Positions 1,200 to 23,391 of a stretch of 46,498 nt of DNA are shown here, piece after piece. Positions within the stretch are counted from its first letter, which is position 1. Each line of letters opens with the position of its first letter. This DNA is from Planctomycetales bacterium (lineage in GTDB: Bacteria > Planctomycetota > Phycisphaerae > SM23-33): positions 1 to 46,498 of the forward strand of contig DAOWOP010000001.1 of assembly GCA_030642005.1 (NCBI GenBank), in the 5' to 3' direction. Made by a program: the position numbers and the translations under genes. Below the pieces are notes generated by a model. That model had not been told where the DNA came from and made no database searches. It was given only the letters and a program-made list of their open reading frames with translations.

Positions 1200-3118
1200 C
1201 CGATGATCTTCGCCCATATCCCGAATACAAGGACTCTGATGTGCCGTGGCTCGGTGAGACCCCTCGCCATTGGGGGCGAACGCATGGTGGAGCGGTCCTC
1301 CAGCAGAAGCGGGTCCGTAATCGTGGCATGATCGAGGACACCGTCCTCTCACTTAGCTATGGGCGGATCGTCATCAAGCCCCCTGAGAAACTCCACGGCC
1401 TTGTGCCGGAGTCTTTTGAGACGTACCAGATCGTCGATCCAGGCGACATCATCATTCGGCCAACGGATCTTCAAAACGACTGGAACACCATTCGTGTCGG
1501 CATCGTCAAGGGTCGAGGCATCATCACCTCGGCGTATCTGTGCTTCCGCACCCGCGAGCCGCTCACCGCCGAGTACGCGCACCTGCTCCTACTCGGTTAT
1601 GACCTCAAGAAGATCTTCTACGGCATGGGGTCAGGTCTCCGCCAGAACCTCGACTGGTCAGACTTCAAGCGCCTGCCGATTTTGCTGCCTCCACCTGAGG
1701 AGCAGAGGGCCATCGTCACCTACGTGAATCGGTTGGATCTACAGGTGCGCCAATTCATCCATAACCGGCGGCGGCTGATCGAAGTGTTGAACGAGCGGAA
1801 GCAAGCCATCACCCACCGCGCTGTCACCGGGGGCCTCGTTCCCGATGTCCATCTCAAACCCTCCGGTGTCGAGTGGCTCGGCGACGTACCGGAACATTGG
1901 GAGGTAACACCTGGTCGAAATTGCTTTTTTGAGAAGAAACAAACGAATGTTGGACTAATGGAATCGACTGTTTTGTCGTTGAGCTATGGCAATATTGTAA
2001 TCAGGCCAGAAGAGAAGCTGCATGGGCTTGTTCCAGCGTCATTCGAAACCTACCAGATTGTAGAGTCGGGCGACATTATTTGTCGTCCCACTGACCTGCA
2101 GAATGACAAGAAAAGCCTTCGCTTCGGTTTCTCCAAACATCGTGGCATTATCACGTCCGCATATCTATGTTTCAGAACAAGTTCCAGAATAGATAGTTAT
2201 TTCGCATATCTGCTTCTTCATACATACGACCTGAAGAAGATAATCTACCGTCTTGGCTCTGGCCTTCGTCAGAATCTTGCGTGGGGTGATTTCAAGAGTT
2301 TGCCTTGCCTACTCCCACCGCTCTCCGAGCAAACCGCAATCGTCGAGTATCTCGAAAAAACGACCGCTGATATTGACACCGCCATCAACCGCGCCCACCG
2401 CGAAATCGGCCTGATCCGCGAATACCGCACGCGGCTAATTGCCGACGTGGTAACAGGCAAGGTGGACGTGCGGCAAGTCTCTGCGATGACAGCAACATCA
2501 ACTGCGACTGAGGCCAAGCCAGCCCAACCCAAGCGCACCGCGAACGTTTACTTCCGCCGGTCAGTGTTTGCCGCCGAAATTGTACAGCGTCTCCACGAAG
2601 AACCGACCTTCGGTCATGTAAAATTCGAGAAACTGATTTTCCTGTGTGAGAAGCAGTGTGGCGTGGACACCGGATCGACGTACCATCGGCAGGCCGCGGG
2701 ACCATATGACAATCGCGCGCTTCGATCCATCGACAGCCAGATGGAGAAGCAGAAATGGTACGCCGCTCAGCAGGTCGAAGGGCGCTACCAGTATGTTCCC
2801 TTGGCCAAAGCGGGCGGCCACAAGACGTACTTCGACCGGTACTTCGCAAATGTTGAATGGGAGTTCTCGAACATCATTGAGACCTTCCGCACACTGAACA
2901 CACAACGGTGCGAGATTGTCGCCACGTTGTATGCCGTATGGGAAGACCTGCTGGCGCAGAGCGACAACGTTACGGGCGACCAAATCGTCGAACAAGTACT
3001 CCACCACTGGCACCCATCTAAGCAAGAGGTCGATGAGAATCGGTGGCGGCAGGCGATTGGCTGGATGAGGAAGAAGGGCTTGACGCCCAAGACTGGGGGC
3101 TCCGATGCCGACGACTGA
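1196..3118 (+). CDS. hsdS: Type I R-M specificity subunit HsdS with two near-identical target-recognition domains and an extra ~200-aa C-terminal domain
   Basis: There are two TRD-like halves (LSLSYGRIVIKPPEKLHGLVPESFETYQIV... and LSLSYGNIVIRPEEKLHGLVPASFETYQIV...). Each is followed by the conserved HsdS helical spacer (LPPPEEQRAIVTYV..., LPPLSEQTAIVEYL...REYRTRLIADVVTGKVDV). At 640 aa it is much longer than a typical HsdS. It overlaps hsdM (ATGA) and hsdR. Confidence 0.85.
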   Translation: MTDDLRPYPEYKDSDVPWLGETPRHWGRTHGGAVLQQKRVRNRGMIEDTVLSLSYGRIVIKPPEKLHGLVPESFETYQIVDPGDIIIRPTDLQNDWNTIRVGIVKGRGIITSAYLCFRTREPLTAEYAHLLLLGYDLKKIFYGMGSGLRQNLDWSDFKRLPILLPPPEEQRAIVTYVNRLDLQVRQFIHNRRRLIEVLNERKQAITHRAVTGGLVPDVHLKPSGVEWLGDVPEHWEVTPGRNCFFEKKQTNVGLMESTVLSLSYGNIVIRPEEKLHGLVPASFETYQIVESGDIICRPTDLQNDKKSLRFGFSKHRGIITSAYLCFRTSSRIDSYFAYLLLHTYDLKKIIYRLGSGLRQNLAWGDFKSLPCLLPPLSEQTAIVEYLEKTTADIDTAINRAHREIGLIREYRTRLIADVVTGKVDVRQVSAMTATSTATEAKPAQPKRTANVYFRRSVFAAEIVQRLHEEPTFGHVKFEKLIFLCEKQCGVDTGSTYHRQAAGPYDNRALRSIDSQMEKQKWYAAQQVEGRYQYVPLAKAGGHKTYFDRYFANVEWEFSNIIETFRTLNTQRCEIVATLYAVWEDLLAQSDNVTGDQIVEQVLHHWHPSKQEVDENRWRQAIGWMRKKGLTPKTGGSDADD

Positions 3119-6050
3119 CACATCCGAGAAAGGCCTGGAGACTTTGATCGTCGAGTCACTCGTGAACGAGGCCGGCTACGAACAAGGTCTGCCCGACGAC
3201 TACGACCGCGACCACGCAGTTGACCTGGCGAAGATGCTGGCATTCCTGGCGGCCACACAGCCGAAGGCAGTCGAGGCGCTGGGCCTGGCCGAGGACGGGC
3301 CGAAGCGGACACAGTTCCTTCATCGCCTTCAGGGCGAAATCGCCAAGCGCGGCGTGATTGATATTTTACGGAATGGCGTTAAGCATGGGCCGGTGAGCGT
3401 GGAGATGTTCTACGCCGCGCCCACGCCGGGGAATACAAAGGCAGAGCAGTTATTCGCAGCCAACATTTTCAGCGTTACTCGCCAGCTTCGTTACAGCAAG
3501 GATGAGACGCAGTTGTCGCTGGATTTGTGTGTGTTCATCAACGGCTTGCCTATCGCCACATTCGAACTCAAGAACTCTCTGACCAAGCAGACGGTTGCTG
3601 ATGCGGTGCAACAATACAAGCGGGACCGCAACCCCAAGGAACTGCTCTTTGCATTCGGGCGGTGCATGGTGCACTTCGCCGTGGACGACCAAGAAGTGCG
3701 GATGTGTACGCACCTTCAGGGCAAGCACTCGTGGTTCCTGCCGTTCGACATCGGTTGGAATGATGGAGCCGGTAACCCGCCGAACCCGACCGGCCTGAAG
3801 ACGGACTACCTTTGGAAGCAGGTCCTGACCAAGGCCAGGCTGACGGACATTATCGAGAACTACGCCCAAGCCGTGGAGGAGAAGGACGACAAGGGCAGGA
3901 AGAAACGCAAGCAGATATTCCCGCGTTACCACCAGCTTGACGTGGTGCGGAAACTACTGGCCGACGCAGAGGCCGGCGGGGCCGGCAAGCGATACTTGAT
4001 CGAGCACTCAGCCGGCAGCGGCAAGAGTAACTCCATCGCATGGCTGGCCCATCAATTGATTGGCCTAGAGAACCGTGGGAAGGCGATCTTCGATTCCATC
4101 ATCGTCGTTACGGATCGGCGGGTGCTGGACAAGCAGATTCGGGACACGATTAAGCAGTTTGCACAAGTCTCGGCCGTTGTAGGGGCCGTCACCGAGGGAG
4201 CCAAGCAGCTTCGGAATTTCATTCAACAAGGCAAGAAGATTATCATCTCGACGGTCCAGAAGTTCCCATTCATCCTGGACGAGATCGGTGACGAGCATCG
4301 CGGACGGAAGTTCGCCATCATTATCGACGAGGCCCATTCCAGCCAAGGCGGCCGGACCTCAGCGAAGATGAACATAGCACTATCGGAGACCGGCGGCGAG
4401 GAAGAGGAAGAAACCACCGAAGACAAGATTAACCGCATCATGGAGTCGCGGAAGATGCTCACCAACGCGAGTTACTTCGCTTTTACCGCGACACCGAAGA
4501 ACAAGACGCTGGAGATATTCGGCGAGCCGTACCGGGAAGGCGATAAGACCCGGCATCGGCCATTCCACTGCTACACGATGAAGCAGGCCATCCAGGAAGG
4601 CTTCATATTAGACGTGCTGAAGAACTACACGCCGGTCGAAAGCTATTACCGCCTGATGAAGACGGTGCCCGACGACCCGGAGTTCGATACGAAAAAGGCT
4701 ACGAAGAAGCTCCGCCGATACGTCGAATCGCATGAGCATGCGATCCGGCAGAAGGCGGAGATCATGGTTGATCACTTCCATAACCATGTGCTGGCCCGCA
4801 GGAAAATTACCGGGCAGGCGCGGGCTATGGTGGTCACTAGCGGAATTCGGCGGGCGATCCAGTATTATCACGCGTTCGTGGATTACCTTCGGGAACGAAA
4901 GATCCCGTACAAGGCTATCGTGGCGTTTTCCGGCGAGCACGAGTATGGCGGGCAGAAAGTAACCGAGGCATCGCTGAACGGTTTTCCGAGCAGCCAGATC
5001 GTGAAGAAGTTTCAGCAGGAGCCGTATCGCTTCCTCATCGTGGCGGACAAGTTCCAGACCGGCTACGACGAGCCGCTGCTACACACGATGTACGTGGACA
5101 AAATCCTCTCCGGCATCAAGGCTGTGCAGACGCTGTCGCGTCTCAACCGTGCCGATCCTCGCAAGCACGATACGTTTGTGTTGGACTTCATGAACGACGC
5201 CGACACCATCGAGGCGGCCTTCGCGGACTACTACCGCACGACTATCCTCAGCGAGGAGACAGACCCGAATAAATTGCACGACCTAAAGGCTGCGCTGGAC
5301 AGACGCCAGGTTTATGCCTGGCCACAGGTGGAAAATCTGGCCGAGTTGTATCTCGACGGAGCAGACCGGGACAATCTGGACCCGATTCTTGATGCGTGCG
5401 TGGCCGTCTATAATGCCGATCTGGACGAGGACGGACAGGTTGATTTCAAAGGCAAGGCCAAGGCGTTCTGTCGGACATACGGCTTTCTCGCGTCGATCTT
5501 GCCGTACACGAACGCAGATTGGGAGAAGCTGTCAATCTTCCTGAACTTTCTGATTCCCAAGCTGCCAGCACCAATCGAGGAAGATTTGGCTAAGGGAATC
5601 CTGGAGGCCATCGACATGGATAGCTATCGCGTCGAGGTTCAGGCGGCGATGGAGATCGCTCTGCCGGATGATGATGGCCAAGTCGGACCAGTGCCGACAA
5701 GCGGTGGAGGCCGTAAGCCGGAACCCGAACTGGACGCACTCAGCAACATCATCAAGGCCTTTAACGACCAGTTCGGCAACATCGAGTGGAAGGATAAGGA
5801 TAGAATTCGCAAAGTCATCAGCGAGGAGATTCCCGCGAAGGTGGCAGCCGACAAGGCCTACCAGAACGCGATGAAGAACTCGGATAAAGCCGCCGCCCGA
5901 CTTGAGCATGACAAAGCGCTCCAGAAAGTCGTCATTGAATTGCTTTCCGACCATACGGAGCTTTTTAAGCAGTTCAGCGATAATCCCAGTTTCAAGAAAT
6001 GGCTGGCGGACACGATCTTCGGTGTCACCTATGAGGGTGACGCTGCGTAA
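3105..6050 (+). CDS. hsdR: Type I restriction enzyme R subunit HsdR (nuclease plus SF2 helicase/translocase)
   Basis: N-terminal PD-(D/E)xK-like motif (DLCVFINGLPIATFELKNS), helicase motif I (HSAGSGKSNS) and DEAH box (IIIDEAHSSQ). It is 981 aa and sits directly after hsdM and hsdS. Confidence 0.92.
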   Translation: MPTTDTSEKGLETLIVESLVNEAGYEQGLPDDYDRDHAVDLAKMLAFLAATQPKAVEALGLAEDGPKRTQFLHRLQGEIAKRGVIDILRNGVKHGPVSVEMFYAAPTPGNTKAEQLFAANIFSVTRQLRYSKDETQLSLDLCVFINGLPIATFELKNSLTKQTVADAVQQYKRDRNPKELLFAFGRCMVHFAVDDQEVRMCTHLQGKHSWFLPFDIGWNDGAGNPPNPTGLKTDYLWKQVLTKARLTDIIENYAQAVEEKDDKGRKKRKQIFPRYHQLDVVRKLLADAEAGGAGKRYLIEHSAGSGKSNSIAWLAHQLIGLENRGKAIFDSIIVVTDRRVLDKQIRDTIKQFAQVSAVVGAVTEGAKQLRNFIQQGKKIIISTVQKFPFILDEIGDEHRGRKFAIIIDEAHSSQGGRTSAKMNIALSETGGEEEEETTEDKINRIMESRKMLTNASYFAFTATPKNKTLEIFGEPYREGDKTRHRPFHCYTMKQAIQEGFILDVLKNYTPVESYYRLMKTVPDDPEFDTKKATKKLRRYVESHEHAIRQKAEIMVDHFHNHVLARRKITGQARAMVVTSGIRRAIQYYHAFVDYLRERKIPYKAIVAFSGEHEYGGQKVTEASLNGFPSSQIVKKFQQEPYRFLIVADKFQTGYDEPLLHTMYVDKILSGIKAVQTLSRLNRADPRKHDTFVLDFMNDADTIEAAFADYYRTTILSEETDPNKLHDLKAALDRRQVYAWPQVENLAELYLDGADRDNLDPILDACVAVYNADLDEDGQVDFKGKAKAFCRTYGFLASILPYTNADWEKLSIFLNFLIPKLPAPIEEDLAKGILEAIDMDSYRVEVQAAMEIALPDDDGQVGPVPTSGGGRKPEPELDALSNIIKAFNDQFGNIEWKDKDRIRKVISEEIPAKVAADKAYQNAMKNSDKAAARLEHDKALQKVVIELLSDHTELFKQFSDNPSFKKWLADTIFGVTYEGDAA

Positions 6051-6117
6051 ACAGAAGTGTTACCGTAAAGAAGCGAACGTCGAACGGACGATAATGGACT
6101 ATTTGGACACACGTTAG

Positions 6118-7476
6118 GTGTGGCATGGAGAATCGGGCGTGATTGTAGCAACGCCACAACATGATGAGCAGCTTCGAGGTAGGCTTGAAGCGCTAACAGA
6201 ACACGACCGGGACTACTGGTCGTTTAGGGGCAATTCACGCCGAGAGTATGGCCATGGACTTTTTCAGTACCCAGCCATGATGGTACCGCAAGTAGCCCGC
6301 GCCGTTCTCAAAGAAGCCTGCGCTGTTCACCCCGAAATCGAGCGAGCAGGCGATCCATTTTCGGGATCGGGAACAATCCTGACCGAAAGCATGATGCGCG
6401 GTCTTGCATTTTTTGGGACAGATATTAATCCCTTGGCGGCACGGCTGTGTCGGGTTAAGAGCGGGCCGTTCTTCGTTGAGGCATTGGGGCAGAAGGCTAG
6501 TGAAGTCGTTGCTCATATCGATGGTGATAAACGGTGGGCTGTTGAGGCCAATTTCATGAACCGGGACAAGTGGTTCCGAAGGGACGCACAAGTTGCACTG
6601 TCGAAGGTCCGTCGAGCGATTCGTCTCGAAAAATCGGCATGGGCTCGTAGATTCTTCTGGGTCGCTTTGGCCGAAACCGTTCGAGCCACAAGCAACTCTC
6701 GCACATCAACCTTCAAGCTGCACATTCGGACGCAAGAGGAAGTGGAAGGACGCGACCTCGACCCGATTGGTGTCTTCAAAAAAGTGGTTGTCCGCAATGT
6801 TCAGCACTTGAAGGACCAGGCCAGCCAACTGTCGGAAGCAGGCCAACTTGTGCGCGGTCATTACCAGCAAGACATAACCGTATCGCTTGACGATATTCGG
6901 CAAAGCACGGATCAGCCCCTGTGCGACATCATTGTAACTTCGCCACCGTACGGAGATAATGCAACCACTGTTCCCTATGGCCAGTACTCATACCTGCCAC
7001 TTCAGTGGATCGATCTTGAAGACATCGGAACAAACGTGGACGCTGGCTGTCTAGCATCGACTCACGAGATCGATACGCGAAGCCTCGGCGGTAGTAAGCG
7101 AGTGAAGAAGGCAGAGCCTGATCAGATCAAGGAGCGATCTCCAGCATTTGCGAGATACATCGGGAGCCTCAAGGATCAACCACGAGATCGCGCACAGCGG
7201 GTAACCGCCTTCTTCCGCGACTTGGACGGGTGCCTTGATCCGATTCTCAAGAGTCTGCGTTCTGGCGGTCTCATGGTTTGGACGCTGGGGAACCGGAAAG
7301 TTGGGGGGAAACGGGTTCCTTTGGATAAGATTCTTGCGGAATTGCTTTCGGCCCATGGTGCAAGACTGCTATGCAAGCTGACGAGGAAAATATCCTCAAA
7401 ACGCATGGCACTCAAGAACAATATCGCAGACACGATGTCGAGCGAAGCAATCCTGGTGATGCGGAAGGCAGTGTAA
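6118..7476 (+). CDS. DNA methyltransferase (N6-adenine or N4-cytosine class), orphan-like, first gene of a coupled triad
   Basis: SAM-binding motif I DPFSGSGTI, catalytic motif IV TSPPYGD about 195 aa downstream, and a YPAMMVP element near the N-terminus. The ORF-track start is GTG at 6118. GTG at 6139 has a better RBS (GGAGAA at 6127-6132). The stop is 1 nt before the next start. Confidence 0.75.
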   Translation: MWHGESGVIVATPQHDEQLRGRLEALTEHDRDYWSFRGNSRREYGHGLFQYPAMMVPQVARAVLKEACAVHPEIERAGDPFSGSGTILTESMMRGLAFFGTDINPLAARLCRVKSGPFFVEALGQKASEVVAHIDGDKRWAVEANFMNRDKWFRRDAQVALSKVRRAIRLEKSAWARRFFWVALAETVRATSNSRTSTFKLHIRTQEEVEGRDLDPIGVFKKVVVRNVQHLKDQASQLSEAGQLVRGHYQQDITVSLDDIRQSTDQPLCDIIVTSPPYGDNATTVPYGQYSYLPLQWIDLEDIGTNVDAGCLASTHEIDTRSLGGSKRVKKAEPDQIKERSPAFARYIGSLKDQPRDRAQRVTAFFRDLDGCLDPILKSLRSGGLMVWTLGNRKVGGKRVPLDKILAELLSAHGARLLCKLTRKISSKRMALKNNIADTMSSEAILVMRKAV

Positions 7477-7477
7477 T

Positions 7478-9964
7478 ATGGCGAAGGATAAGAAATCACA
7501 TTTTGAGGTGCATCCCTCTGTTGTGTATCAGCTCGGCGAGAGCCTAATCAGTGATGCCGTTCAGGCGTTAATCGAGCTTGTAAAGAACTGCTATGATGCC
7601 GATGCCACCTACGCCAAGATCACAATCGATACGCAGGGGGCAGTGGAGGTCGCCGGAGCCCTCTACCCTTCAGAAGGGGGCCGAATTATCGTCGAAGACG
7701 ATGGTTACGGGATGGACCTGGAGGATGTCGAGTCGGGCTGGCTGACGATCTCGAACAGAAAGAAGCGTGACCTAAAACAGGCCAAGAAGACCACTCCTGG
7801 TGGGCGCACACCTCTTGGCGACAAAGGACTGGGACGACTTGGCGTACAGCGTCTCGGCGACAGCCTGGAAATATTCACGAAGTCCAAGAAGGAGTCGGGA
7901 TACCATTTTGGCTTCTCCTGGCTTGACTTCGAGACTGCGCCAAAGCTTGAAAACGTTGATATCCATCTTGCCAAGATCAAGTATCCTCGGTCGTATGGAA
8001 CGAAGGTGGTTGTTTCGGGCCTTCGGGAACCCAAGTTCTGGCAAGGTCAACCCGCAATCAAACGCCTTGAGCAAGAGCTCTCGCGGATGATCTCTCCGTA
8101 CAAGCAAATCCGTGATTTCATGGTGGTCGTTGAAGTGGACGGAAAGCCGCTTGAGTTACTCGAGATCAGCGACAAGGTTCGTAGGATCGCTCCGATTCGG
8201 TACAGCCTCGTATTTGATGGAACGAATTTAGTCGTTCATGGTCGAACTCGACTGGACTTCTTCAGGCCATCGTCACCAAGGGAGTCCGAACAGTTTGCAT
8301 TGATCGCTGAATCGGATGGTGGCCAGGCATTCTATAAGTTTCTCGAAGGGCATAAGCTTGCAAAGATCATTGGTCTGGGCCAGTCACGTGCAAAGCAATG
8401 GTATTGCGAGTTTCACTGGCAGAAGGCTTTGGGCGATCTCGACAAGGTAGAGCGTGAGAGTTCCGATGACGGGAACGTGGCAAACCCAGGACCGTTCACA
8501 GGAGAAGTGGATTCTTTCAATCTTGGCACCTCTTCGTTTCAGCAGCAATCCGTCTTTGATCGCATCAGCGAATATCGTCGTCACATCAAGGAATTAAGCG
8601 GCATTCGTGTGTATCGAGATGGATTCGCAATCAGAGTCGATCACGACTGGCTCAAGTTGGGTGCGCAGTGGACATCGGCAACATCCTACTATGGCCTAAA
8701 GCCGGACAATACACTCGGATACATTGCCCTTTCTGCTCGGGACAACATAGAGTTGGAGGAGACAACAGACCGCGAAGGCTTCAAGGACTCACCTTACTAC
8801 CGAAACTTCTATGCTCTGCTGGAGGAGTTCAAGAAGTTTACGACAATTGCTCACGACTTTTTCGGTCGCTCCTGGGCGGAGTTTCGCAAAAAGCGAAATG
8901 AGGAATTGGCACGGGTTGATGCGCGGAAAACGGTAGAGAATATCTCCCAAACGATAAAGAAAGGACTTGCTGAGGCACCAACGCACCAGAAGAGCCTTGA
9001 TGCGCTGACGGCAAGGCTCAGCGCCAGCACATCGGCGTCAAAGGCAGTTGTCTCTGGGCTGCAATCGGCAAAGGAGATAACGCCGGAACTCCGGAAGAAG
9101 GTCACAGAGGCCCTGTCTGCTTTGGAACCGCTCCTTGAAGAAGCCAAGGGTGTGATAGGACGGTTGTCTGCGTACCTCGAAGAGGTGGGAGCCCTGCGGG
9201 GCATGGGGCAAGTGCTGGAAGACCGCGTTGATGGCTTGCGACGACAGATGGACGACATGTACGAGACGGTCGCACTGGGGCTGACGGCCGAAGCGTTATC
9301 TCATGAGGTATTCAATGTGGCCGACCAACTTGCTAAGCGAACTAAATCGGCGCAGACCACATTGAGGAAGAAAGGCATTACAGACCGCCCCATCCTTGCC
9401 TTTATCGAGTACGTCCACTCGGCCGTCATGGCTCTCCGTAAACAGATGTCCTATTTGTCGCCGTCGTTGCGATATGTGCGTGAGCAACGGCACGACATCA
9501 ACATCCGCGAGTTCTTGGCTGATATTGCAGAGTTTTACGCCGAGCGATTGGCCAAGAACAACATATCGATACGAGTCGAATGCGCAGATGATGCGCTCTT
9601 CGTCATTCGTATGAATAAGGGCAAACTGACGCAGGTTATAGACAATTTCGTCCTGAACAGCGAGTACTGGCTTAAAGAGGACATCACGCAAAAGCGACAA
9701 TCGTCCGGCATAATCTTTCTTGATATTGCCCGCCCATTTCTTCGAATCTACGACAATGGCAGCGGTATCGATCCCAACGTAGAAGACGCGATCTTCGAGC
9801 CGTTTATTTCAGCGAAGGCAAAGGGGCAAGGACGCGGTCTTGGGCTATTTATCGTGAAGCAGTTGCTGGATTCCGAGGGCTGCAGCGTAGGACTGCTTCC
9901 AGATCGCAACAAGCGCCGGCGAATGTTCAAGTTCCAGATCGACCTCCGGGGGGCACTTGCATGA
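7478..9964 (+). CDS. Dual GHKL-fold ATPase: N-terminal MORC/Hsp90-like ATPase module fused to a C-terminal histidine-kinase-like (DHp plus HATPase_c) module
   Basis: N-terminal N-box ELVKNCYDADA, G1 box VEDDGYGM and G2 box GDKGLGRLG. C-terminal H-box-like ALSHEVFNV, then NFVLNSEYW ... YDNGSGIDPNVEDAIFEPF ... GQGRGLGLFIVKQL. No transmembrane segments are evident. Confidence 0.7.
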   Translation: MAKDKKSHFEVHPSVVYQLGESLISDAVQALIELVKNCYDADATYAKITIDTQGAVEVAGALYPSEGGRIIVEDDGYGMDLEDVESGWLTISNRKKRDLKQAKKTTPGGRTPLGDKGLGRLGVQRLGDSLEIFTKSKKESGYHFGFSWLDFETAPKLENVDIHLAKIKYPRSYGTKVVVSGLREPKFWQGQPAIKRLEQELSRMISPYKQIRDFMVVVEVDGKPLELLEISDKVRRIAPIRYSLVFDGTNLVVHGRTRLDFFRPSSPRESEQFALIAESDGGQAFYKFLEGHKLAKIIGLGQSRAKQWYCEFHWQKALGDLDKVERESSDDGNVANPGPFTGEVDSFNLGTSSFQQQSVFDRISEYRRHIKELSGIRVYRDGFAIRVDHDWLKLGAQWTSATSYYGLKPDNTLGYIALSARDNIELEETTDREGFKDSPYYRNFYALLEEFKKFTTIAHDFFGRSWAEFRKKRNEELARVDARKTVENISQTIKKGLAEAPTHQKSLDALTARLSASTSASKAVVSGLQSAKEITPELRKKVTEALSALEPLLEEAKGVIGRLSAYLEEVGALRGMGQVLEDRVDGLRRQMDDMYETVALGLTAEALSHEVFNVADQLAKRTKSAQTTLRKKGITDRPILAFIEYVHSAVMALRKQMSYLSPSLRYVREQRHDINIREFLADIAEFYAERLAKNNISIRVECADDALFVIRMNKGKLTQVIDNFVLNSEYWLKEDITQKRQSSGIIFLDIARPFLRIYDNGSGIDPNVEDAIFEPFISAKAKGQGRGLGLFIVKQLLDSEGCSVGLLPDRNKRRRMFKFQIDLRGALA

Positions 9965-11712
9965 GTGATCAAAACGCCATTGCACACGCGCGTACCGCAG
10001 TTGAGCGCATTCTAACGGCCCTCCATGTTGCGCGCGTTGTCTGTGTTGATGACACCTATGGCGGTGGTACATCGCTGGAAGACGTCATCGCTGCTGCCAC
10101 TGATCTGGATGCAGACCACTTAGTCAATGCAGTGCCCGAACTAGGCGAGAACGTCCCGGATGATCCGGACATTCGACGCGAAAAACTGCGCCAGATATGG
10201 GGACAGATGGATGAGGATACGCGTTCCAAACGAGCCGATGCAGTGCTCATAGCGACCAGACGCCAAGACGACGATGAAACGGATGACCTCGCCGATGCTT
10301 CGATCTTGGGCGAACTGATCCCCGAGGACAATCTGGTAACCATCTCCCCGTCGCAATGGGAGGAACAGAAAGAGAAACTACTGACGCCTGATGGCGATCA
10401 GCGCACCCTCTTTCTGTTCGACCGTGACTTCTCCGAAGACGGTGGCGACAGCGACGGGGGTATCAAGATCATTGCCTCTCTGCTTGCAAGGAACGACACT
10501 GAAAATCTTATCTGCGGTCTTTTGACTCACACGGTGACGCCGGAGAACCAGTCGGAACAGTGGGACGAATTGAGCAAGGCTTACAGTATTCCGAGGGATC
10601 GATTCGTAGTGATTCCCAAGTTACATCTGAGCAGAGATCCGGTTCTCTTCGCTCAGACGCTGAAGTTCGTAGCATTGTGCCCCGACTTCACGGAGCTAAA
10701 GCGTAAGACAAAAGAGATTATAGCAGATGCAGCCGCCACTGCAGCCAATCGCGTCGATGAGATGAGCATCTTTGACCTTGATCACATAGTCTTTCAGGTT
10801 TCCGCCCAAGAAGGACTCTGGGAGCCCGACATGCTGTTTCGACTCCACACGTTGTTCCATCGCCTTGAGTCCCGACGTCTGGCACATGAGGGTGGGGAAC
10901 TTGAAACAATTGCGGCCAAATTAAGGGCCGTCAGCGAGATTCCGACCAATTGCGCTGCGTTCACTCCGCCCTCGAATGCATGGGCAATCCAACGGGACGA
11001 GCTCTTCGAATCGGACGTTTACATCAACCAGAATCACTTGCCATTGGAAGCTGGAGACATCTTCGAGCGGGTGGGAGCGTCCAGTAGTAAACGGTACATT
11101 CTGCTGGCCCAGCCATGCGATCTGATGGTGCGAAGCAATGGAAAACGACATCCCGAACTCGACCGGGTTCCCATGGCCGAAGTTGTGTGTAATGAGCAGA
11201 CATCTCACTATTCAGAGGAACTGCCGTATTTCGGCTCGTCTCCCGCAGAGAGATGGCACGTCAAACTGAAACTTGTCCATCAAGTACGGGTGTGCATCCT
11301 TGATCTGTGCGTCCTGAACGACGATGGGGTTGCGAGGCTGGTTGTTGGTGGCAATGCCCCAGCGAATATGCGCCCTGCTTGGAACAAACGCCATGCCATT
11401 TTGTCTCGTCTCATGGGCCGCATAATACGCAAGGCGGATCTGTGCGCTCCAGTTGCGAATGAATCAACTGCTGTAAGCCAAGTAAAGACGGCTATTGCGA
11501 GTGGCATGACGAGCGTGCTATTCGACGAAGCGTTATTCAAGGGCACCCTTGCAAAGGTTGGCGGGGCTCGCACGGTAACCTATGACTGCCGGCGAATCGC
11601 TCGAGCATCTCGGGCGCGGGCCTTCGGTTTGTTGATGGCCTATACAGGCTGCTTGAGCCGTCCAGCCTATGATCGTGTCTTTACTCCGACACAGGTCACG
11701 GGAGACCAATGA
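9961..11712 (+). CDS. Hypothetical protein with an N-terminal receiver (REC)-like region and a ~350-aa C-terminal domain of unknown function
   Basis: ATGA overlap with the upstream kinase-like gene. REC-like strand pattern: VVCVDDTYGG, then RTLFLFDRDF (candidate acceptor Asp), GLLTHTV and IPKL. The C-terminal part has a conserved-looking GDIFE...ILLAQPCDLMVR element that I cannot assign to a family. Confidence 0.5.
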   Translation: MSDQNAIAHARTAVERILTALHVARVVCVDDTYGGGTSLEDVIAAATDLDADHLVNAVPELGENVPDDPDIRREKLRQIWGQMDEDTRSKRADAVLIATRRQDDDETDDLADASILGELIPEDNLVTISPSQWEEQKEKLLTPDGDQRTLFLFDRDFSEDGGDSDGGIKIIASLLARNDTENLICGLLTHTVTPENQSEQWDELSKAYSIPRDRFVVIPKLHLSRDPVLFAQTLKFVALCPDFTELKRKTKEIIADAAATAANRVDEMSIFDLDHIVFQVSAQEGLWEPDMLFRLHTLFHRLESRRLAHEGGELETIAAKLRAVSEIPTNCAAFTPPSNAWAIQRDELFESDVYINQNHLPLEAGDIFERVGASSSKRYILLAQPCDLMVRSNGKRHPELDRVPMAEVVCNEQTSHYSEELPYFGSSPAERWHVKLKLVHQVRVCILDLCVLNDDGVARLVVGGNAPANMRPAWNKRHAILSRLMGRIIRKADLCAPVANESTAVSQVKTAIASGMTSVLFDEALFKGTLAKVGGARTVTYDCRRIARASRARAFGLLMAYTGCLSRPAYDRVFTPTQVTGDQ

Positions 11713-11830
11713 TGACACAGGTAACACAACATGCATCAATACGAGACGAGTCGCAGATTCAGGATCATCTGGACGAGGTGGTTCGCCGGAGCGCCTCGGT
11801 TTTGTAGATACCGCGGCATCCGTAAAACCA

Positions 11831-12823
11831 TCACCCTCTTCGCTGCGAAGGCGGCCGGATGCGCGGCCCAATGTGAGCACCATGTAGTCCATCGGACGTT
11901 GGCGGGAAGACACTCAAGTGGAGAAGATGGTCCTCGACCTGCAGGATCTGACCAAGCACGTCCTCGGCATCGAAACGCAGATCGTCACCAAGCCCCACCG
12001 CGTTGAAGGCCTGGCATTGCTGTTCGGCAACGTGCTCCAACAATACGCTGGCTGCCTTGGCGGTGAACGTCTTGTTGGCCTTGTCCTTGGCTGCCTCGGC
12101 GTCGACGGCGTAGCTCGCCACCAGTCGCGCCCAGACTGCCTCGAGCGTTGAGGGCGAGTCAAAGGCGTCCGCCGCCACGAAACGCCCACACACGGCCGCC
12201 ACGACGCCACACGTGCCAGAGGGGTACGGTAATGCCTCGTGATAGCGCCCGAGCACTTCGGCCAGTGTGTCCATTGCATCGGACATCGCACGGGTTGGTG
12301 AAGGGGCGGCGCAGGCCTCGATGTGTTCGGCCACGTTGTCCCACACGGCTCCTTGATCGCTTTCGGCCCGGCCACAGGCGCGAAGGCTGAACTGAACGTC
12401 GCGGCTCTTGCGCTGGCGCAAGCTGCTCGGCGCGTAGTTGCCGGTTTTGAAGGTCGGACTGGTGTGGCTCCACCGGCCTTCCTCGACGCAGGATACCGGG
12501 ATGCGGGTCTTGGACTTTGGCGGCAATAGCACACTCGTGTTGAGGATTCGATTCTGCTTCGCGCCCTGGAGTTCCTCGCCGTCCAGCAGCAATATCGGCC
12601 GGTCAGCGTTATTGACCGCCAGGAGTTCCGGCACTGTACCGGACTCATCAACCTCGGTTACCGTCAGCATACCAGCGTCGATGGCTTCGGACGCCAGCAG
12701 GTAGTCCTGGAATCGTTGCTGATGCCCCTCCCCCCGCAGGGGCACCAGCGTCAGGTTCTGGTGGCCTATCGCGGCCCCGGGTACCAGGGTTGGGAGAACG
12801 TCTTTCATTCGGATCGTGGTCAT
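11831..12823 (-). CDS. Conserved hypothetical protein, divergent from the WYL regulator gene
   Basis: The ORF track starts at TTG 12844. ATG at 12823 is preceded by AAGGAAAGGG and is the more likely start. The N-terminal half (NLTLVPL...LTVTEVDESGTVPELLAVNNADRPILLLDGEELQGAKQNRILNTSVLL) recalls a widespread bacterial DUF family (possibly ARPP-1/DUF6569-like). That is from memory only and unverified. Confidence 0.55.
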   Translation of the reverse strand: MTTIRMKDVLPTLVPGAAIGHQNLTLVPLRGEGHQQRFQDYLLASEAIDAGMLTVTEVDESGTVPELLAVNNADRPILLLDGEELQGAKQNRILNTSVLLPPKSKTRIPVSCVEEGRWSHTSPTFKTGNYAPSSLRQRKSRDVQFSLRACGRAESDQGAVWDNVAEHIEACAAPSPTRAMSDAMDTLAEVLGRYHEALPYPSGTCGVVAAVCGRFVAADAFDSPSTLEAVWARLVASYAVDAEAAKDKANKTFTAKAASVLLEHVAEQQCQAFNAVGLGDDLRFDAEDVLGQILQVEDHLLHLSVFPPTSDGLHGAHIGPRIRPPSQRRG

Positions 12824-12872
12824 GGCTATCCCTTTCCTTATCAAGTTGCCGATACAAGGGTAACCGGGGCCT

Positions 12873-12893
12873 GTGACAGGTCCGGTCGCACCT
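12873..12893 (-). promoter_or_regulatory. Operator-like box, copy A (17/21 match, oriented toward the minus-strand gene 11831-12823)
   Basis: The reverse complement reads AGGTGCGACCGGACCTGTCAC against the consensus ACCTGCGACCGAACCTGTCAT. It lies 50 nt upstream of the ATG at 12823. Confidence 0.55.
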
Positions 12894-12920
12894 GGCCAAG
12901 ATTTCTCAAAAAAATTCGTG

Positions 12921-12941
12921 ACCTGCGACCGAACCTGTCAT
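12921..12941 (+). promoter_or_regulatory. Operator-like box, copy B (exact 21-mer ACCTGCGACCGAACCTGTCAT) upstream of the WYL regulator gene
   Basis: Identical to 13970-13990. It is preceded by an A/T tract and ends 41 nt before the ATG at 12982. It contains an internal direct repeat ACCTG-N7-ACCTG. Confidence 0.65.
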
Positions 12942-12981
12942 GGGTATGGATTACCCTCCACAGTGACGAAAGGATGCAAGT

Positions 12982-13959
12982 ATGGCTCGAGGCGATGGCC
13001 TGTTTCGACAATGGGAATTGATCAAGGTGCTGCAAGCCCACCGGTTCGGCGTAAGCACCGACGAGATCGCCGCGCGCCTCGAGTGCAATAAGCGGACCGT
13101 CCAGCGTGACCTGGGCGTCCTCCAGGACATCTTCCCGATTAGTTACGAGCAGCGGGACCGTGGCAAGCGGTTCTGGAAGATGGCCTACAACACAATCGAA
13201 TCGGAAGAGCTTCAACTGACGATGACCGAAATGTTGAGCCTGTTCCTCTCGCAGCAACTGCTCCTGCCGCTTTCGGGAACCCAGTTCGGCGACGGCCTCC
13301 AGACGGCCTTGCAGAAGATTCGAGCGCTGCTGCCGGCGCGGGCGCTGACGTACTTCGATGGCCTCGACGAGTCATTCTTCATCAAGAACCTGGCCAACCA
13401 CGACTACTCCGGCCAGGACAAGGAAATCCGCATCATCAACGAGGCCATCCTGAACCAGAAGACTGTGAAGGTAATCTATCGCTCGGCCAGCAAGGGTCGT
13501 GAGGTCATCAGTGAGTTCCACCCGTACGGCATGGTCCTGCTGCACGCGTCGCTGTACTGCATCGGCTACCTCGCATGCTACGACGAAGTCCGCACGCTCA
13601 AGGTGGCCCGGATCAAGGGCCTGACGCGGCTGGACAAGACGTTCAACAAGCCACTTGATTTCTCGCTGGCTGGCCACTTCCAGGGCGCGTTCGGTGTCTT
13701 CCAGGCTAAGAAGAAGCAGAAGATTCGAGTTGAATTCACCGGATGGGCGGCCACGAACGTTCGGGAAATGCAGTGGCATCCGACCCAGAAGATAGTCAAG
13801 GATGCTGGCGACAAGGTCGTCGCCACGTTCGATCTGGGCAACACCGTCGAGTTCAAGCGGTGGGTGCTGGGGTTCGGACTGCACGCCCGCATCATCAGTC
13901 CCAAGGCACTGGCCGAGGACCTCCGGGACGAAATCCAGAGCATGGCCAAGAATTATTAA
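12982..13959 (+). CDS. WYL-domain transcriptional regulator (HTH-WYL-WCX architecture, BrxR/CapW-like)
   Basis: N-terminal wHTH (WELIKVLQAHRFGVSTDEIAARLECNKRTVQRDLGVL), central WYL-type segment (VKVIYRSASKGREVISEFHPYGMVLLHASLYCIGY) and a C-terminal extension. RBS AAAGGA lies 7 nt upstream of the ATG. Confidence 0.85.
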   Translation: MARGDGLFRQWELIKVLQAHRFGVSTDEIAARLECNKRTVQRDLGVLQDIFPISYEQRDRGKRFWKMAYNTIESEELQLTMTEMLSLFLSQQLLLPLSGTQFGDGLQTALQKIRALLPARALTYFDGLDESFFIKNLANHDYSGQDKEIRIINEAILNQKTVKVIYRSASKGREVISEFHPYGMVLLHASLYCIGYLACYDEVRTLKVARIKGLTRLDKTFNKPLDFSLAGHFQGAFGVFQAKKKQKIRVEFTGWAATNVREMQWHPTQKIVKDAGDKVVATFDLGNTVEFKRWVLGFGLHARIISPKALAEDLRDEIQSMAKNY

Positions 13960-14047: not shown

Positions 14048-15934
14048 ATGAACGAAAAAAAGCGTTGTCACCGGCTCAAGTCGCTGTCGGTGGTCGGTGG
14101 GTTTCTGGATGGGTTGAATATCGAGTTTGCCGACGGGCTGAATTGTCTTATCGGCCATCGTGGTACGGGCAAGACGACCGTGCTGGAGTTTATCCGTTAT
14201 GCCCTCGACGAGTTTCCGCAAGACGATGGAGGGCTGGCCCGCAAGCGGGTCGAAGCACTGGTCAAAAGCAACCTCAGCGACGGCCGCATCCGGCTGGCAC
14301 TGGAGACCAAGGATGGGTTGGAGTACATCGTCGACCGGACCGCCAGTGGCGAGCCGATGGTCCTGACCACTGATGAGCAACCGACGGACGTTCGCATCAA
14401 CACGGCGGGCATTTTCAGCGCCGATATCTTCAGTCAGAACGAGGTCGAGAACATCGCCGACAGTCCACAGTCGCAGCTGGAGCTGATTGACAAGTTCGCA
14501 GCCGGTCAGATCGCAGAGGTCAACCGCAAGGTGACGGCGGTGCGGGCCAAGATGGAGGCGAACACCAACGCCATTGTTACCCATGACCAGCAGTTGAAAG
14601 GTCTGGTCGACGAGGTCTCCGCGCTGCAGTTCATCGAGTCGAAGATCAAGTCCCTTACCGATGATAAGAGCGACCAGACGGATGATGAGGTTAACGTCGC
14701 GCAGCAGCATCGTGCGCTGCGGGGACGTGAGAGCCAGGCGGTCAAGGAGGCAGAGGAACTGATCCAGCAATACAGCCAGTGGCTCCACGATTCGCGCGGT
14801 CAGTTTATCCAGCGAATCGAAACGGCCTTCGACCCGTCAATGTTGGACGGGCCGAATGGCAAGGTGATGAGCCGCATTCAGGAGAATCTCAGGCGGCTTG
14901 GGAGCAAACTGGATCGCCTGTTCGACCAGGCCGCCGGCGTGGTTGATTCCGGTGGGAATGAACTGGCGGAACTGGTCGGCAAGCTCCAGCACGCCCACCA
15001 GCAGCAGGAGCTGGCGTTCCGCGACCTGATCGCCAAGGACAACCATGCACGCGGGGTGGCCACGGAGCGGGCGGAATTGGAAAAGAAACGTAATGATTTG
15101 CTAGCCAAGGATCGGCGTAAGGCTGAGCTTCAAAAGCAGATCGACCAGCTCTATCGGGAACGGTCTGATCTGGCCGGGCAGCTCCGTGAATTGTGGTCCG
15201 AGCGATTCGAGCTGCGGCAGCAGGTCGCCAACTGGATTAACGAGGGCGCGACGTCGCCTATTCGCGTCCGGATCGACCAGTGCGGCAACCGTTCGGTCTA
15301 CCAGCAGGCGTTGGCCGGCTGGATGAAGGGATATGTGCGCCAGTACAACCCGGCGGCCAGGAAGATAGCGGACTACGTGCCACCGAGCGACCTGCTGCGG
15401 ATGGTCACCGAGGGACGCACCGATGATCTTCAGGCCCAAGCGGAACTCGGAGACACGCAGATGGCCAAGGTGATGGAGGCCCTGAACCGTCTTGATGTCC
15501 AACTGCAGCTCGACTCGGTTGAACTGGCCGATCTGCCACGGCTTGAACTGCTGGACGGTGAGGAGTGGAAGAACTCTCTGCATCTTTCGACCGGCCAGAA
15601 GTGCACGACGATTCTGCCGATCCTGCTGCTGGAGAGCGACAACCCATTGCTCGTCGATCAGCCTGAGGACAATCTCGACAACCGCTATATCTACGACACG
15701 GTGGTCAATGCCATCCATCGGGTGAAGCAGAACCGCCAGATTATCCTGATCACGCACAACCCGAACATTCCCGTTCTCGGCGAGGCGTCGGCGGTGTACG
15801 TGCTGACCAGCGACGGCGAGCGAGCCCGTATGGCGAACCAGGGCTCCGTGGACGACTGCAAAACCGAGATCATCAATCTCCTGGAAGGCGGCAAGGAAGC
15901 CTTTGTCCGCAGGAAGGACAGGTACAAATACTGA
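14048..15934 (+). CDS. SMC/Rad50-like ABC ATPase with a long central coiled-coil insert
   Basis: Walker A IGHRGTGKTT at the N-terminus. About 330 aa of heptad-like, charged sequence in the middle. Signature-like LSTGQK and Walker B/D-loop LLVDQPEDNLD near the C-terminus. Confidence 0.75.
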   Translation: MNEKKRCHRLKSLSVVGGFLDGLNIEFADGLNCLIGHRGTGKTTVLEFIRYALDEFPQDDGGLARKRVEALVKSNLSDGRIRLALETKDGLEYIVDRTASGEPMVLTTDEQPTDVRINTAGIFSADIFSQNEVENIADSPQSQLELIDKFAAGQIAEVNRKVTAVRAKMEANTNAIVTHDQQLKGLVDEVSALQFIESKIKSLTDDKSDQTDDEVNVAQQHRALRGRESQAVKEAEELIQQYSQWLHDSRGQFIQRIETAFDPSMLDGPNGKVMSRIQENLRRLGSKLDRLFDQAAGVVDSGGNELAELVGKLQHAHQQQELAFRDLIAKDNHARGVATERAELEKKRNDLLAKDRRKAELQKQIDQLYRERSDLAGQLRELWSERFELRQQVANWINEGATSPIRVRIDQCGNRSVYQQALAGWMKGYVRQYNPAARKIADYVPPSDLLRMVTEGRTDDLQAQAELGDTQMAKVMEALNRLDVQLQLDSVELADLPRLELLDGEEWKNSLHLSTGQKCTTILPILLLESDNPLLVDQPEDNLDNRYIYDTVVNAIHRVKQNRQIILITHNPNIPVLGEASAVYVLTSDGERARMANQGSVDDCKTEIINLLEGGKEAFVRRKDRYKY

Positions 15935-18140: not shown

Positions 18141-18281
18141 CGTGAGCGTTCTTGCGGATCAGAATCTGTATCGGCGTATGGTGACATGAGTTGGAATCAT
18201 GCTGACACCTCAGTCCCGGCGCGTTAGCATGGGTGGCGCAAGTCGAGACTGTTTCGTGCATGGAAAGCGGGCAGAGTTGGC

Positions 18282-23205: not shown

Positions 23206-23391
23206 CCCATCCTCCACGACGGGCCGATGGCACCGGTGCCATATCTGCAATACTGCCGGGCTTCTTTTGGCGGCGGATTCGGAGCCAGCCATCCGACGCT
23301 ATCCCAGAAAACATCTTGACGCATGAGGCTACGAGATCGACAATATCATATGGTAGATTGCACTCTCCCCCGGGCGAAGGAATGGTATTCA

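Follow-up and report, generated by a model that had tools for sequence, protein, structure and literature searches.

A methyltransferase, a GHKL-kinase and a receiver-like protein form a candidate phosphorelay conflict cassette in a Planctomycetales defence island

In a contig of a Planctomycetales bacterium (DAOWOP010000001.1, assembly GCA_030642005.1), of which a stretch of 46,498 nucleotides was analysed (the window), three co-directional genes between positions 6118 and 11712 encode a predicted DNA methyltransferase (gene 1), a predicted fusion of a GHKL ATPase with a histidine kinase (gene 2) and a receiver-like protein with a toxin-like C-terminal domain (gene 3). We consider it somewhat better than an even bet (about 0.55) that this triad is a self-contained, mobile conflict cassette, most likely directed against phages or plasmids, which signals by His-Asp phosphotransfer. 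The catalytic motifs of both ATPase modules of gene 2, its histidine H609 and the methyltransferase motifs of gene 1 are invariant in 21 triad loci, and the window itself is a defence island by Pfam, PADLOC and NCBIfam matches. The cassette belongs to a broad group of GHKL-kinase and receiver-partner pairs that travel with a methylase. An earlier reading of this DNA, made from its letters alone (here the sequence-only reading), had proposed a self-marking methylase, an ATPase that senses DNA and an effector that is phosphorylated, and we retain that model as the best account of how such a cassette would work.

Organization of the locus

The genes and their junctions are as follows (all on the + strand; aa, amino acids).

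6118-7476, +: gene 1 as given in the list of open reading frames (ORFs), 452 aa, GTG start
6139-7476, +: gene 1 from GTG 6139, predicted DNA amino-methyltransferase, 445 aa (PADLOC profile and public gene call)
7474-7480, +: gene 1 stop TAA, a spacer of 1 nt and the gene 2 ATG (read as GTG TAA T ATG GCG; stop 7474-7476, start 7478)
7478-9964, +: gene 2, predicted soluble GHKL-ATPase/histidine-kinase fusion, 828 aa (Pfam, NCBIfam and profile matches)
9961-9964, +: ATGA, gene 3 start overlapping the gene 2 stop (sequence reading)
9961-11712, +: gene 3, receiver-like protein with a toxin-like C-terminal domain, 583 aa (structure model, conserved residues)

Reading of the sequence confirmed the three ORFs and both junctions, in agreement with the earlier description of three coupled genes; the letters at the gene 2/gene 3 junction, with the overlap at 9961-9964, are GCATGAGTG. 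The start of gene 1 is likelier to be GTG 6139 than 6118, because a GGAGAA lies 6 nt before it and because the public gene call has 445 aa, a length shared by the orthologues on four further contigs. With this start, and with the hsdR stop at 6050, the gap between hsdR and gene 1 measures 88 nt, which corrects the 67 bp given previously.

On the 5' side of gene 1 there are a truncated hsdM, an hsdS and an hsdR (Pfam, PADLOC). The gap from hsdR to gene 1 contains no ORF, and neither an HNH nor an XRE gene adjoins the triad in the window. The proteins of genes 1-3 contain no hydrophobic stretch compatible with a membrane helix. A scan for promoters and terminators over positions 5800-13100 gave counts at or below the shuffled expectation.

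Conservation and distribution of the triad

A pattern scan with one genome per species yielded 28 loci. The sequence-only reading had suggested looking for the three genes together in other genomes, and this co-occurrence was indeed found: their succession is the same in about 22 of the 28 genome loci, in all four further metagenomic contigs and in two plasmids (pRetMIM1f of Rhizobium etli Mim1 and one of Hymenobacter monticola), with order and orientation kept wherever the flank suffices. These loci span more than 10 phyla, with representatives in Syntrophaceae, Chromatiales and other Pseudomonadota, Planctomycetota, Lentisphaerae, Nitrospirae, Spirochaetaceae, Gemmatimonadetes, Bryobacteraceae, Thermoanaerobaculia, Hymenobacter, Campylobacterales, Verrucomicrobiota and Ktedonobacteraceae. 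Cultured carriers are available in R. etli Mim1, through pRetMIM1f (L035, 6374-12055), and in several Hymenobacter strains.

The spacing of the genes is also maintained. Between genes 1 and 2 the gap ranges from -1 to +12 nt (1-2 nt in most loci), and genes 2 and 3 overlap by 4 or 8 nt in most loci. Furthermore, the three proteins vary together in pairwise identity across 19 loci (Spearman 0.87-0.93), gene 3 being the fastest evolving, with a mean identity of 0.37 compared with 0.50-0.53 for genes 1 and 2. In one locus (L025) the methylase seemed to be missing and a divergent one is present. Decayed copies were also found: a 411-aa reverse-strand ORF is inserted between genes 2 and 3 in L020 (8709-9944), gene 2 is broken into three ORFs in L038 (7496-10008), and a solitary gene 3 lies beside integrase fragments and an aminoglycoside nucleotidyltransferase gene in L023 (9653-11332).

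With regard to the neighbourhood, no conserved fourth gene was found across the triad loci. The flanks often carry defence or mobility genes (integrases, Fic, TIR, Vsr, MmeI-type, BrxL, PglZ, AIPR, a BsuBI/PstI enzyme, AbiEii, JetD), as the proposed link with defence genes had anticipated; some copies stand alone among housekeeping genes. Such solitary copies, together with the lack of a conserved fourth gene, imply that the effector must lie within the triad. PADLOC matched HNH in one of the 118 neighbours of 26 loci. In a phage collection we found no relative of gene 3 and one weak relative of the methylase, so this collection offers no sign of decoys or protective methylases carried by phages. 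Taken together, sequence comparison indicates that the triad is a conserved, co-inherited, horizontally mobile and self-sufficient cassette.

A functional link with the upstream type I restriction-modification (R-M) genes was considered and discarded: no other locus has hsdR beside the triad, and its adjacency here is therefore regarded as incidental.

The methyltransferase

Two motifs of the predicted amino-methyltransferase were located.

6352-6375, +: motif I, DPFSGSGT, AdoMet binding (translation; D79, P80 and G83-T86 invariant in 21 loci)
6940-6951, +: motif IV, SPPY, catalytic (translation; invariant in 21 loci)

Gene 1 matches over its full length the PADLOC type II methyltransferase profile PDLC03360 (REBASE-derived, MTase_II; 3.9e-107), and its Pfam matches to N6_N4_Mtase and UPF0020 are weak or marginal. 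In total, 91 of its residues are invariant in the 21 loci. The motifs run in the order I to IV, with SPPY about 190 aa past motif I. The form SPP[YF], and SPPY in particular, is typical of N4-cytosine amino-methyltransferases more than of N6-adenine enzymes. Since motif IV reads SPPY, N4-methylcytosine (m4C) is somewhat more likely to be the product than N6-methyladenine (m6A).

The view that this is a DNA methyltransferase with no recognisable endonuclease at its side was borne out, as the searches of the proteins of genes 1-3 brought up neither a nuclease family nor a nuclease motif. Membership of the MADS system was tried and rejected: the mad2, mad3 and mad5 matches in the window fall on the type I genes and on a downstream ATPase, and the mad2 match of gene 1 is insignificant (E=2e-4).

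The GHKL head and the histidine kinase

The following parts were distinguished in gene 2.

7502-8158, +: N-terminal GHKL ATPase head, aa 9-227 (HATPase_c_3, NCBIfam and Hsp90-like profiles)
7574-7588, +: head motif ELVKN
7697-7711, +: head motif DDGYG
8166-9160, +: middle region, aa ~230-560, with RDGF and REGF motifs (conserved residues, no family)
9239-9457, +: DHp helices, for dimerisation and phospho-acceptance (profile matches to solved kinases)
9302-9304, +: H609 in EALSHEV, invariant even in distant relatives
9623-9961, +: catalytic ATP-binding (CA) domain (HATPase_c)
9644-9658, 9752-9766 and 9830-9847, +: N, G1 and G2 boxes of the CA domain

Pfam places HATPase_c_3 at aa 29-144 (4.2e-16). 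The best curated match of the head is the N-terminus of the BbrUII/HgiDII restriction enzymes in NCBIfam (2.5e-22, positions 3-205 of 659), and at the profile level it also resembles the N-domains of TRAP1 and HtpG (Hsp90) at about 1e-9. The matches of PADLOC v2.0.0 to gene 2 are to REase_II only. Residues E33, N37, D74, G76, G78, G114-L121 and T175 of the head are invariant in the 21 triad loci. The head had been called MORC-type, a term that is only loosely justified: the GHKL motifs are present, and the domain is of the HATPase_c_3, Hsp90-like kind with its best match in BbrUII/HgiDII. MORC proteins are defined by an S5-fold domain behind the GHKL domain and by a MORC-specific motif; in gene 2 the corresponding stretch would be aa 230-560.

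Profile comparison matches the last 240 residues to the DHp-to-CA portion of solved kinases (LvrB 3.5e-26, ThkA 2.6e-24, ZraS 7e-24), and Pfam finds HATPase_c at aa 716-804 (3.4e-16). In the DHp helices the His-Glu pair H609-E610 is invariant; in the CA domain, so are N723, N727, D759, G761, G763, F773, G785, G787, G789 and L790. Even with relatives of 22-27% identity added, no variation appears in H609 or in the N, G1, F and G2 boxes. The matches to HATPase_c_3, HATPase_c and the solved kinases thereby uphold the earlier proposal that gene 2 joins a GHKL head to a DHp/CA kinase. Judging from its motifs, gene 2 has a complete classical histidine-kinase core with predicted activity, and the kinase is predicted to be soluble and cytoplasmic, with no transmembrane segment.

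Between the two modules, the middle region of about 330 residues has no Pfam match and no sequence match in the PDB. Its invariant residues are G338, R380-F383, D390, G414, N423, E428 and R432-F435. No nuclease domain was detected anywhere in gene 2 with Pfam, PADLOC, NCBIfam or the PDB profile search.

The receiver-like domain and the toxin-like barrel

Gene 3 has no match in Pfam, NCBIfam or PADLOC. A Pfam search had been recommended for the three proteins; genes 1 and 2 match as claimed and gene 3 does not match, nor do its relatives (22 close ones and a diverse set of 62 members at 26-50% identity), even at lax thresholds. The family is large. A word-indexed search gave 293 matches, and with E<=1e-3 an exhaustive one reached 1293 clusters (50% identity), 614 of them below 1e-30; the best 150 of these 1293 clusters are mostly of about 560-600 aa, with some shorter fragments. 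The closest named homologue comes from a Phycisphaerae metagenome-assembled genome (MAG), which points to a planctomycete as host. In the plasmid NZ_CP094538 of H. monticola (L034, 8563-10359) the gene 3 orthologue is labelled "cytochrome P450" in RefSeq, a mis-annotation, since this orthologue has no Pfam match at all.

The following features were assigned.

9961-10635, +: receiver-like domain, aa 1-225, with a helical insert of ~90 aa after strand 1 (AF2 (beta-alpha)5 model, conserved residues)
10048-10053, +: acidic pair DD of the receiver-like domain
10420-10422, 10525-10527 and 10618-10620, +: D154, T189 and K220
10636-10962, +: helical linker, aa 226-334 (AF2 model, conserved motif)
10810-10830, +: EGLWEPD motif in the linker (E284 and G285 invariant, W287 and E288 at least 90%, in 62 members)
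10963-11709, +: C-terminal effector-like domain, aa 335-583 (AF2 model, Foldseek)
11050-11322, +: MazF/CcdB-like barrel core, ~aa 364-454 (Foldseek)
11053-11064 and 11110-11133, +: C-terminal motifs GDIF and QPCDLMVR

In the 62 members, D30, W133, D154, G167, K220, E284, G285, P361, G365, C386, R391, R545 and R567 are invariant, D31 is kept in at least 90%, and position 189 is conserved as T/S. The full-length AlphaFold (AF2) model has a predicted local distance difference test (pLDDT) of 77 and shows five strand-helix repeats, in which the ends of strands 1, 3, 4 and 5 carry VVCVDD, LFLFD, CGLLT and VVIPK. According to this model, the N-terminus has the signature of a receiver (acidic pair, Asp, Thr/Ser and Lys) in the right register. 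Foldseek returned weak matches of the full-length model to CheY3 (probability 0.75) and to MazF.

When aa 335-583 were modelled alone, with an alignment of 69 sequences, the pLDDT was 94.2 and the predicted template-modelling score (pTM) 0.88. The best 50 Foldseek matches of this domain in the PDB are all toxin entries of the MazF/PemK/CcdB type (probability 0.82-1.0, E 0.009-0.09, target-normalised TM 0.43-0.55, ~92 aligned columns), and the best two in BFVD, an independent viral library, are annotated as PemK-like. The elements of the barrel core follow the order of MazF, namely two strands, a short helix, three to four strands and a helix, to which a helical hairpin and a beta-hairpin are added. 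At the sequence level, the PDB search with the gene 3 profile gave no match at E<=10, the Pfam families of PemK and CcdB match neither gene 3 nor its relatives, and an hhalign comparison between the C-terminal domain and a small MazF/Kid/PemK set (four sequences, one of them from L031) gave 0.4%. The toxin-like assignment from the model concerns the fold and not the family, as these sequence comparisons gave no support. No helix-turn-helix (HTH) family matched in the 62 members even at E<=1, and none is seen in the C-terminal model. The receiver-like start and effector-like end that had been suggested for gene 3 are thus in line with its conserved residues, its AF2 model and the Foldseek results, and a fold can be offered for the output domain of a large family (1293 clusters) of "hypothetical" proteins, one that is linked to compact relatives on Campylobacter conjugative plasmids.

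More distant relatives

Searches of plasmids with tblastn revealed more distant pairs of kinase and partner. The gene 2 profile matches distant kinases of Campylobacter, Acinetobacter baumannii, S. terangae and Bacillus cereus over their full length (1e-66 to 1e-93). B. cereus has a homologue of gene 3 (6e-17) as the partner and one of gene 1 (2.6e-67) as the methylase, the latter lying downstream rather than upstream. A search with the A. baumannii partner gave four matches, none of them labelled PF19192.

A compact branch, with a kinase of ~720 aa and a partner of 340-390 aa, is found on Campylobacter conjugative plasmids, on pREB1 of Acaryochloris, on a Hymenobacter plasmid, and in Enterobacter mori and Fusobacterium. 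The 340-aa receiver protein matched 41 Campylobacter plasmids and the kinase 43. The order C5 methylase, kinase, receiver protein is seen in Acaryochloris and in Hymenobacter NBH84, with Vsr upstream in NBH84. The N-terminus of the compact partner is a receiver that Pfam detects (PF00072, 2.4e-5), and its C-terminus shares with gene 3 the motif GDI...(T/Q/N)P(S/A/C)CD and a C-terminal helix with ...Y..RQG.P. In hhalign the gene 3 family and five compact proteins align at 89.9% probability (E 1.7e-6) over 318 colinear columns, and LFLFD of gene 3 falls on the phospho-Asp strand of the compact receivers. By their Pfam receiver and shared C-terminus, the compact proteins therefore tie gene 3 to true receivers. 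The shared motifs also indicate that the entire group has as its output the barrel domain with its Cys-Asp motif.

One compact version (Campylobacter, L033, 4998-9451) consists of a 732-aa GHKL-kinase and a 340-aa REC-PSCD protein, with dcm on the opposite strand. Its carriers are conjugative plasmids of ~50-73 kb in C. jejuni, C. coli and C. armoricus, a tractable clinical-isolate model.

Comparison with known systems

The sequence-only reading held that a head of this kind, wired through a kinase to a receiver-effector, had not been described. This cannot be maintained, because three reports precede it: a comparative-genomic study (PMC8011034), Ambrosia (bioRxiv 10.1101/2025.09.30.679545) and Detocs (bioRxiv 10.1101/2023.01.24.525353). 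The architecture is already described in outline; the family with an amino-methylase and a long receiver, and with neither nuclease nor regulator, is outside the published models and so far unstudied.

Bellieny-Rabelo, Pretorius and Moleleki (2021; PMC8011034), by comparative genomics alone, described kinases composed of HATPase_c_3, HEF_HK (PF19191) and HATPase_c. In 91.6% of 644 regions these adjoin receiver-like proteins of the Response_reg_2 family (PF19192), which have no other known domain. The pairs are related to paraMORCs and over-represented around type II R-M genes, C5 methylases, Vsr and HNH, and the partner's C-terminal domain was left without assignment. Our literature search found no later paper characterising the PF19191 or PF19192 domains. 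The triad shares with these pairs the kinase architecture, the soluble kinase, the linked DNA methylase and the adjacent receiver-like partner with loop extensions and otherwise no known domain; its compact relatives also resemble them in the order dcm, kinase, receiver protein, at times with Vsr. Unlike in those pairs, where C5 methylases predominate, the methylase here is an SPPY amino-methyltransferase, and gene 3 exceeds their partners by ~200 aa, its receiver carrying a helical insert and its C-terminal domain a helical hairpin. PF19191 does not match gene 2 at E<=1, and PF19192 matches none of 22 gene 3 members at E<=10 or of 62 at E<=1. In the A. baumannii, S. terangae and B. cereus relatives the two families give faint signals alone (E=0.0023 and E=0.64), the former being a PF19191 signal, under the cut-off, in the distant A. 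baumannii relative.

Ambrosia (AbrR-AbrA-AbrB-AbrC-AbrD) is a validated anti-phage system of Pseudomonas aeruginosa comprising an XRE regulator, an N6 methylase, a histidine-kinase/Hsp90-like ATPase, a REC protein with a winged HTH (wHTH; AbrC) and a type IV HNH nuclease, whose defence is lost with the receiver mutation D60A and with mutations in each predicted domain (10.1101/2025.09.30.679545). The likeness to the triad, which brings together a methylase, a kinase/ATPase and a receiver protein, is one of architecture. Ambrosia has five genes, including XRE and type IV HNH genes that the triad and related loci lack. Moreover, AbrC is described as REC plus wHTH, whereas gene 3 has no HTH match in 62 members and its C-terminal model is a beta-barrel with helices.

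In Detocs (DtcA/DtcB/DtcC), a kinase that senses infection phosphorylates a receiver fused to a toxic effector, which leads to abortive infection, and defence is abolished by mutation of the kinase His or the receiver Asp (10.1101/2023.01.24.525353). By analogy, Detocs is the best functional precedent for the sensing, phosphotransfer and effector steps predicted for the triad. The differences lie in the sensor (DtcA has tetratricopeptide repeats, TPRs, and no GHKL head; gene 2 has a GHKL head and no TPR), in the stand-alone buffer receiver DtcB, which the triad lacks, in the methylase, which Detocs lacks, and in the effector, mostly a PNP ATP nucleosidase in Detocs and a MazF/CcdB-like barrel in gene 3.

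As in the MORC and paraMORC ATPases and in BbrUII/HgiDII, the protein of gene 2 begins with a GHKL head whose ATP-binding motifs are intact, and its operon is linked to a methylase; the C-terminal part of the HgiDII-type enzymes is replaced by a kinase. The account of the MORC/paraMORC ATPases of R-M operons by Iyer, Abhiman and Aravind (2008; PMC2292703) mentions neither a kinase fusion nor a receiver partner. Compared with type II R-M systems, the methylase is present and an endonuclease is not detected in gene 2 or gene 3. Finally, MazF/PemK/Kid and CcdB, the sole structural neighbours in the PDB and BFVD, agree with the gene 3 domain in the order of strands and helices of the barrel core. 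They differ from it in that gene 3 has no sequence similarity to them, no antitoxin gene, a receiver fusion, and an extra helical hairpin and beta-hairpin.

Proposed mechanism and alternative explanations

In the mechanism that we propose, gene 1 would mark a motif in the host DNA, probably as m4C or m6A, as its motifs suggest. The head and the middle region of gene 2 would sense non-self DNA, most simply unmethylated sites, and this would lead to autophosphorylation of H609. With a head of restriction-enzyme type joined to a kinase core, what is elsewhere a decision to cleave may here become a phosphorylation signal. The phosphoryl group would then move to D154 of gene 3, and the C-terminal MazF/CcdB-like domain, as sole effector and most likely an RNA-cleaving or growth-arresting toxin, would be freed, with abortive infection as the outcome. 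The scheme in its specific form, a "restriction" without nuclease in which the GHKL ATPase reads methylation and the His-Asp signal frees the receiver-fused toxin, is put forward tentatively. If true, it would mean that self/non-self discrimination in the style of R-M is wired to abortive infection by a two-component relay of three genes in hundreds of lineages. After Detocs and Ambrosia, the triad would add a third class of phosphorelay immunity that is open to experiment, and it would be the first whole system made of methylase, kinase and receiver-effector alone. Since its predicted output is the phosphorylation of a defined Asp, easily read in vitro, sensing by GHKL/paraMORC heads would become testable.

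Several observations weigh against the cassette acting in this way. Pfam detects a receiver in none of the 62 gene 3 members, and hhalign of the N-terminal domain against a small set of canonical REC sequences gave 4% probability, in the correct register and not significant. The MazF likeness is at the level of fold alone (Foldseek E ~0.01, TM 0.43-0.55, no sequence signal), and we know of no counterpart in MazF or CcdB of the invariant Cys/Arg set, which includes Cys386 and Arg391. About 330 residues of gene 2 and 110 of gene 3 belong to no family and could hold the real activity. Both regions, gene 2 at 8166-9160 and gene 3 at 10636-10962, are conserved, and sensing or catalysis could sit in either. 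Three contigs carry the triad alone among housekeeping genes, outside defence islands. In Ambrosia, AbrA methylation did not protect phage, and its authors favour transcriptional control (10.1101/2025.09.30.679545).

Restriction gated by a phosphorelay, in which the methylase protects and genes 2 and 3 attack unmodified DNA through a novel DNase or a CcdB-like gyrase poison, is in our judgement unlikely. The active part would be the C-terminal domain of gene 3 or the middle region of gene 2, and the target DNA, not RNA. The position of the methylase, first and translationally coupled as in R-M operons, would suit this explanation, as would the closeness of the gene 2 head to BbrUII/HgiDII and to the PADLOC REase_II profiles; CcdB is among the structural neighbours of the gene 3 domain, and the conserved E284, D366, D448, R391, R545 and R567 could form a nucleic-acid site. 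However, none of the three proteins contains a detectable nuclease family or motif, and it is MazF-type endoribonucleases that dominate the structural matches. A role outside immunity, either as an addiction module whose kinase-toxin arm is set off when the methylase is lost or as an epigenetic or housekeeping signalling unit, also seems quite unlikely, even though the association with plasmids and integrases, the toxin-like fold of the effector, the copies outside defence islands and the decayed copies would fit it. Addiction and defence are not exclusive, as R-M systems do both, and a housekeeping role agrees poorly with variable insertion sites and with a distribution that is patchy, at high identity, across more than 10 phyla.

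It is also conceivable that gene 3 is a transcriptional switch of the kind favoured for Ambrosia, its non-receiver part binding DNA to induce the operon or other defence genes, with the true effector elsewhere. The Ambrosia authors report both the wHTH of AbrC and expression induced by infection. We regard such a switch as improbable for the triad: the 62 members lack any HTH family match, the confident model of the C-terminal domain has no HTH and resembles MazF/CcdB alone, and the window and related loci do not have the HNH and XRE genes of Ambrosia. Nor is there a conserved neighbouring gene that could be the target, some copies lying by themselves among housekeeping genes.

Other genes of the window

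The triad is followed, ahead of the next system, by a gene for an ARPP-1 domain protein (11831-12844, - strand; PF20208, 5e-91) and one for a WYL/WCX transcriptional regulator (12982-13959, + strand). As neither is conserved beside the triad elsewhere, both are probably components of the island and not of the triad.

A second two-component-like cluster (14048-22628) follows. It begins with a TrlF-family SMC-like ATPase (14048-15934; NCBIfam 2e-84, with PADLOC matches to mad3 and Ppl), whose stop is overlapped by the start of a HEAT-repeat histidine kinase (15934-17082), and continues with a canonical REC protein (17079-18140) and a 1448-aa protein with SACS and NOV_C (18282-22628). The trio of ATPase, kinase and REC protein lies directly after a triad in a Planctomycetota MAG (L009, 3257-7475), the gene 3 of which is 53% identical to that of the window. 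This cluster may represent a further candidate for phosphorelay defence, or else a partner system.

In the upstream type I genes, hsdS (1196-3118) encodes 640 aa, with a normal specificity subunit of two target recognition domains at aa 6-430 and a C-terminal extension of ~200 aa; this extension has matches to the C-terminal ends of some type I methylase and specificity profiles in PADLOC. A Ser/Thr protein kinase gene (23323-24237; Pkinase, 4e-28) lies at the island's edge, and from ~29.5 kb the genes look like housekeeping ones (PilT-like ATPase, RND efflux, OprB porin, sulfatase).

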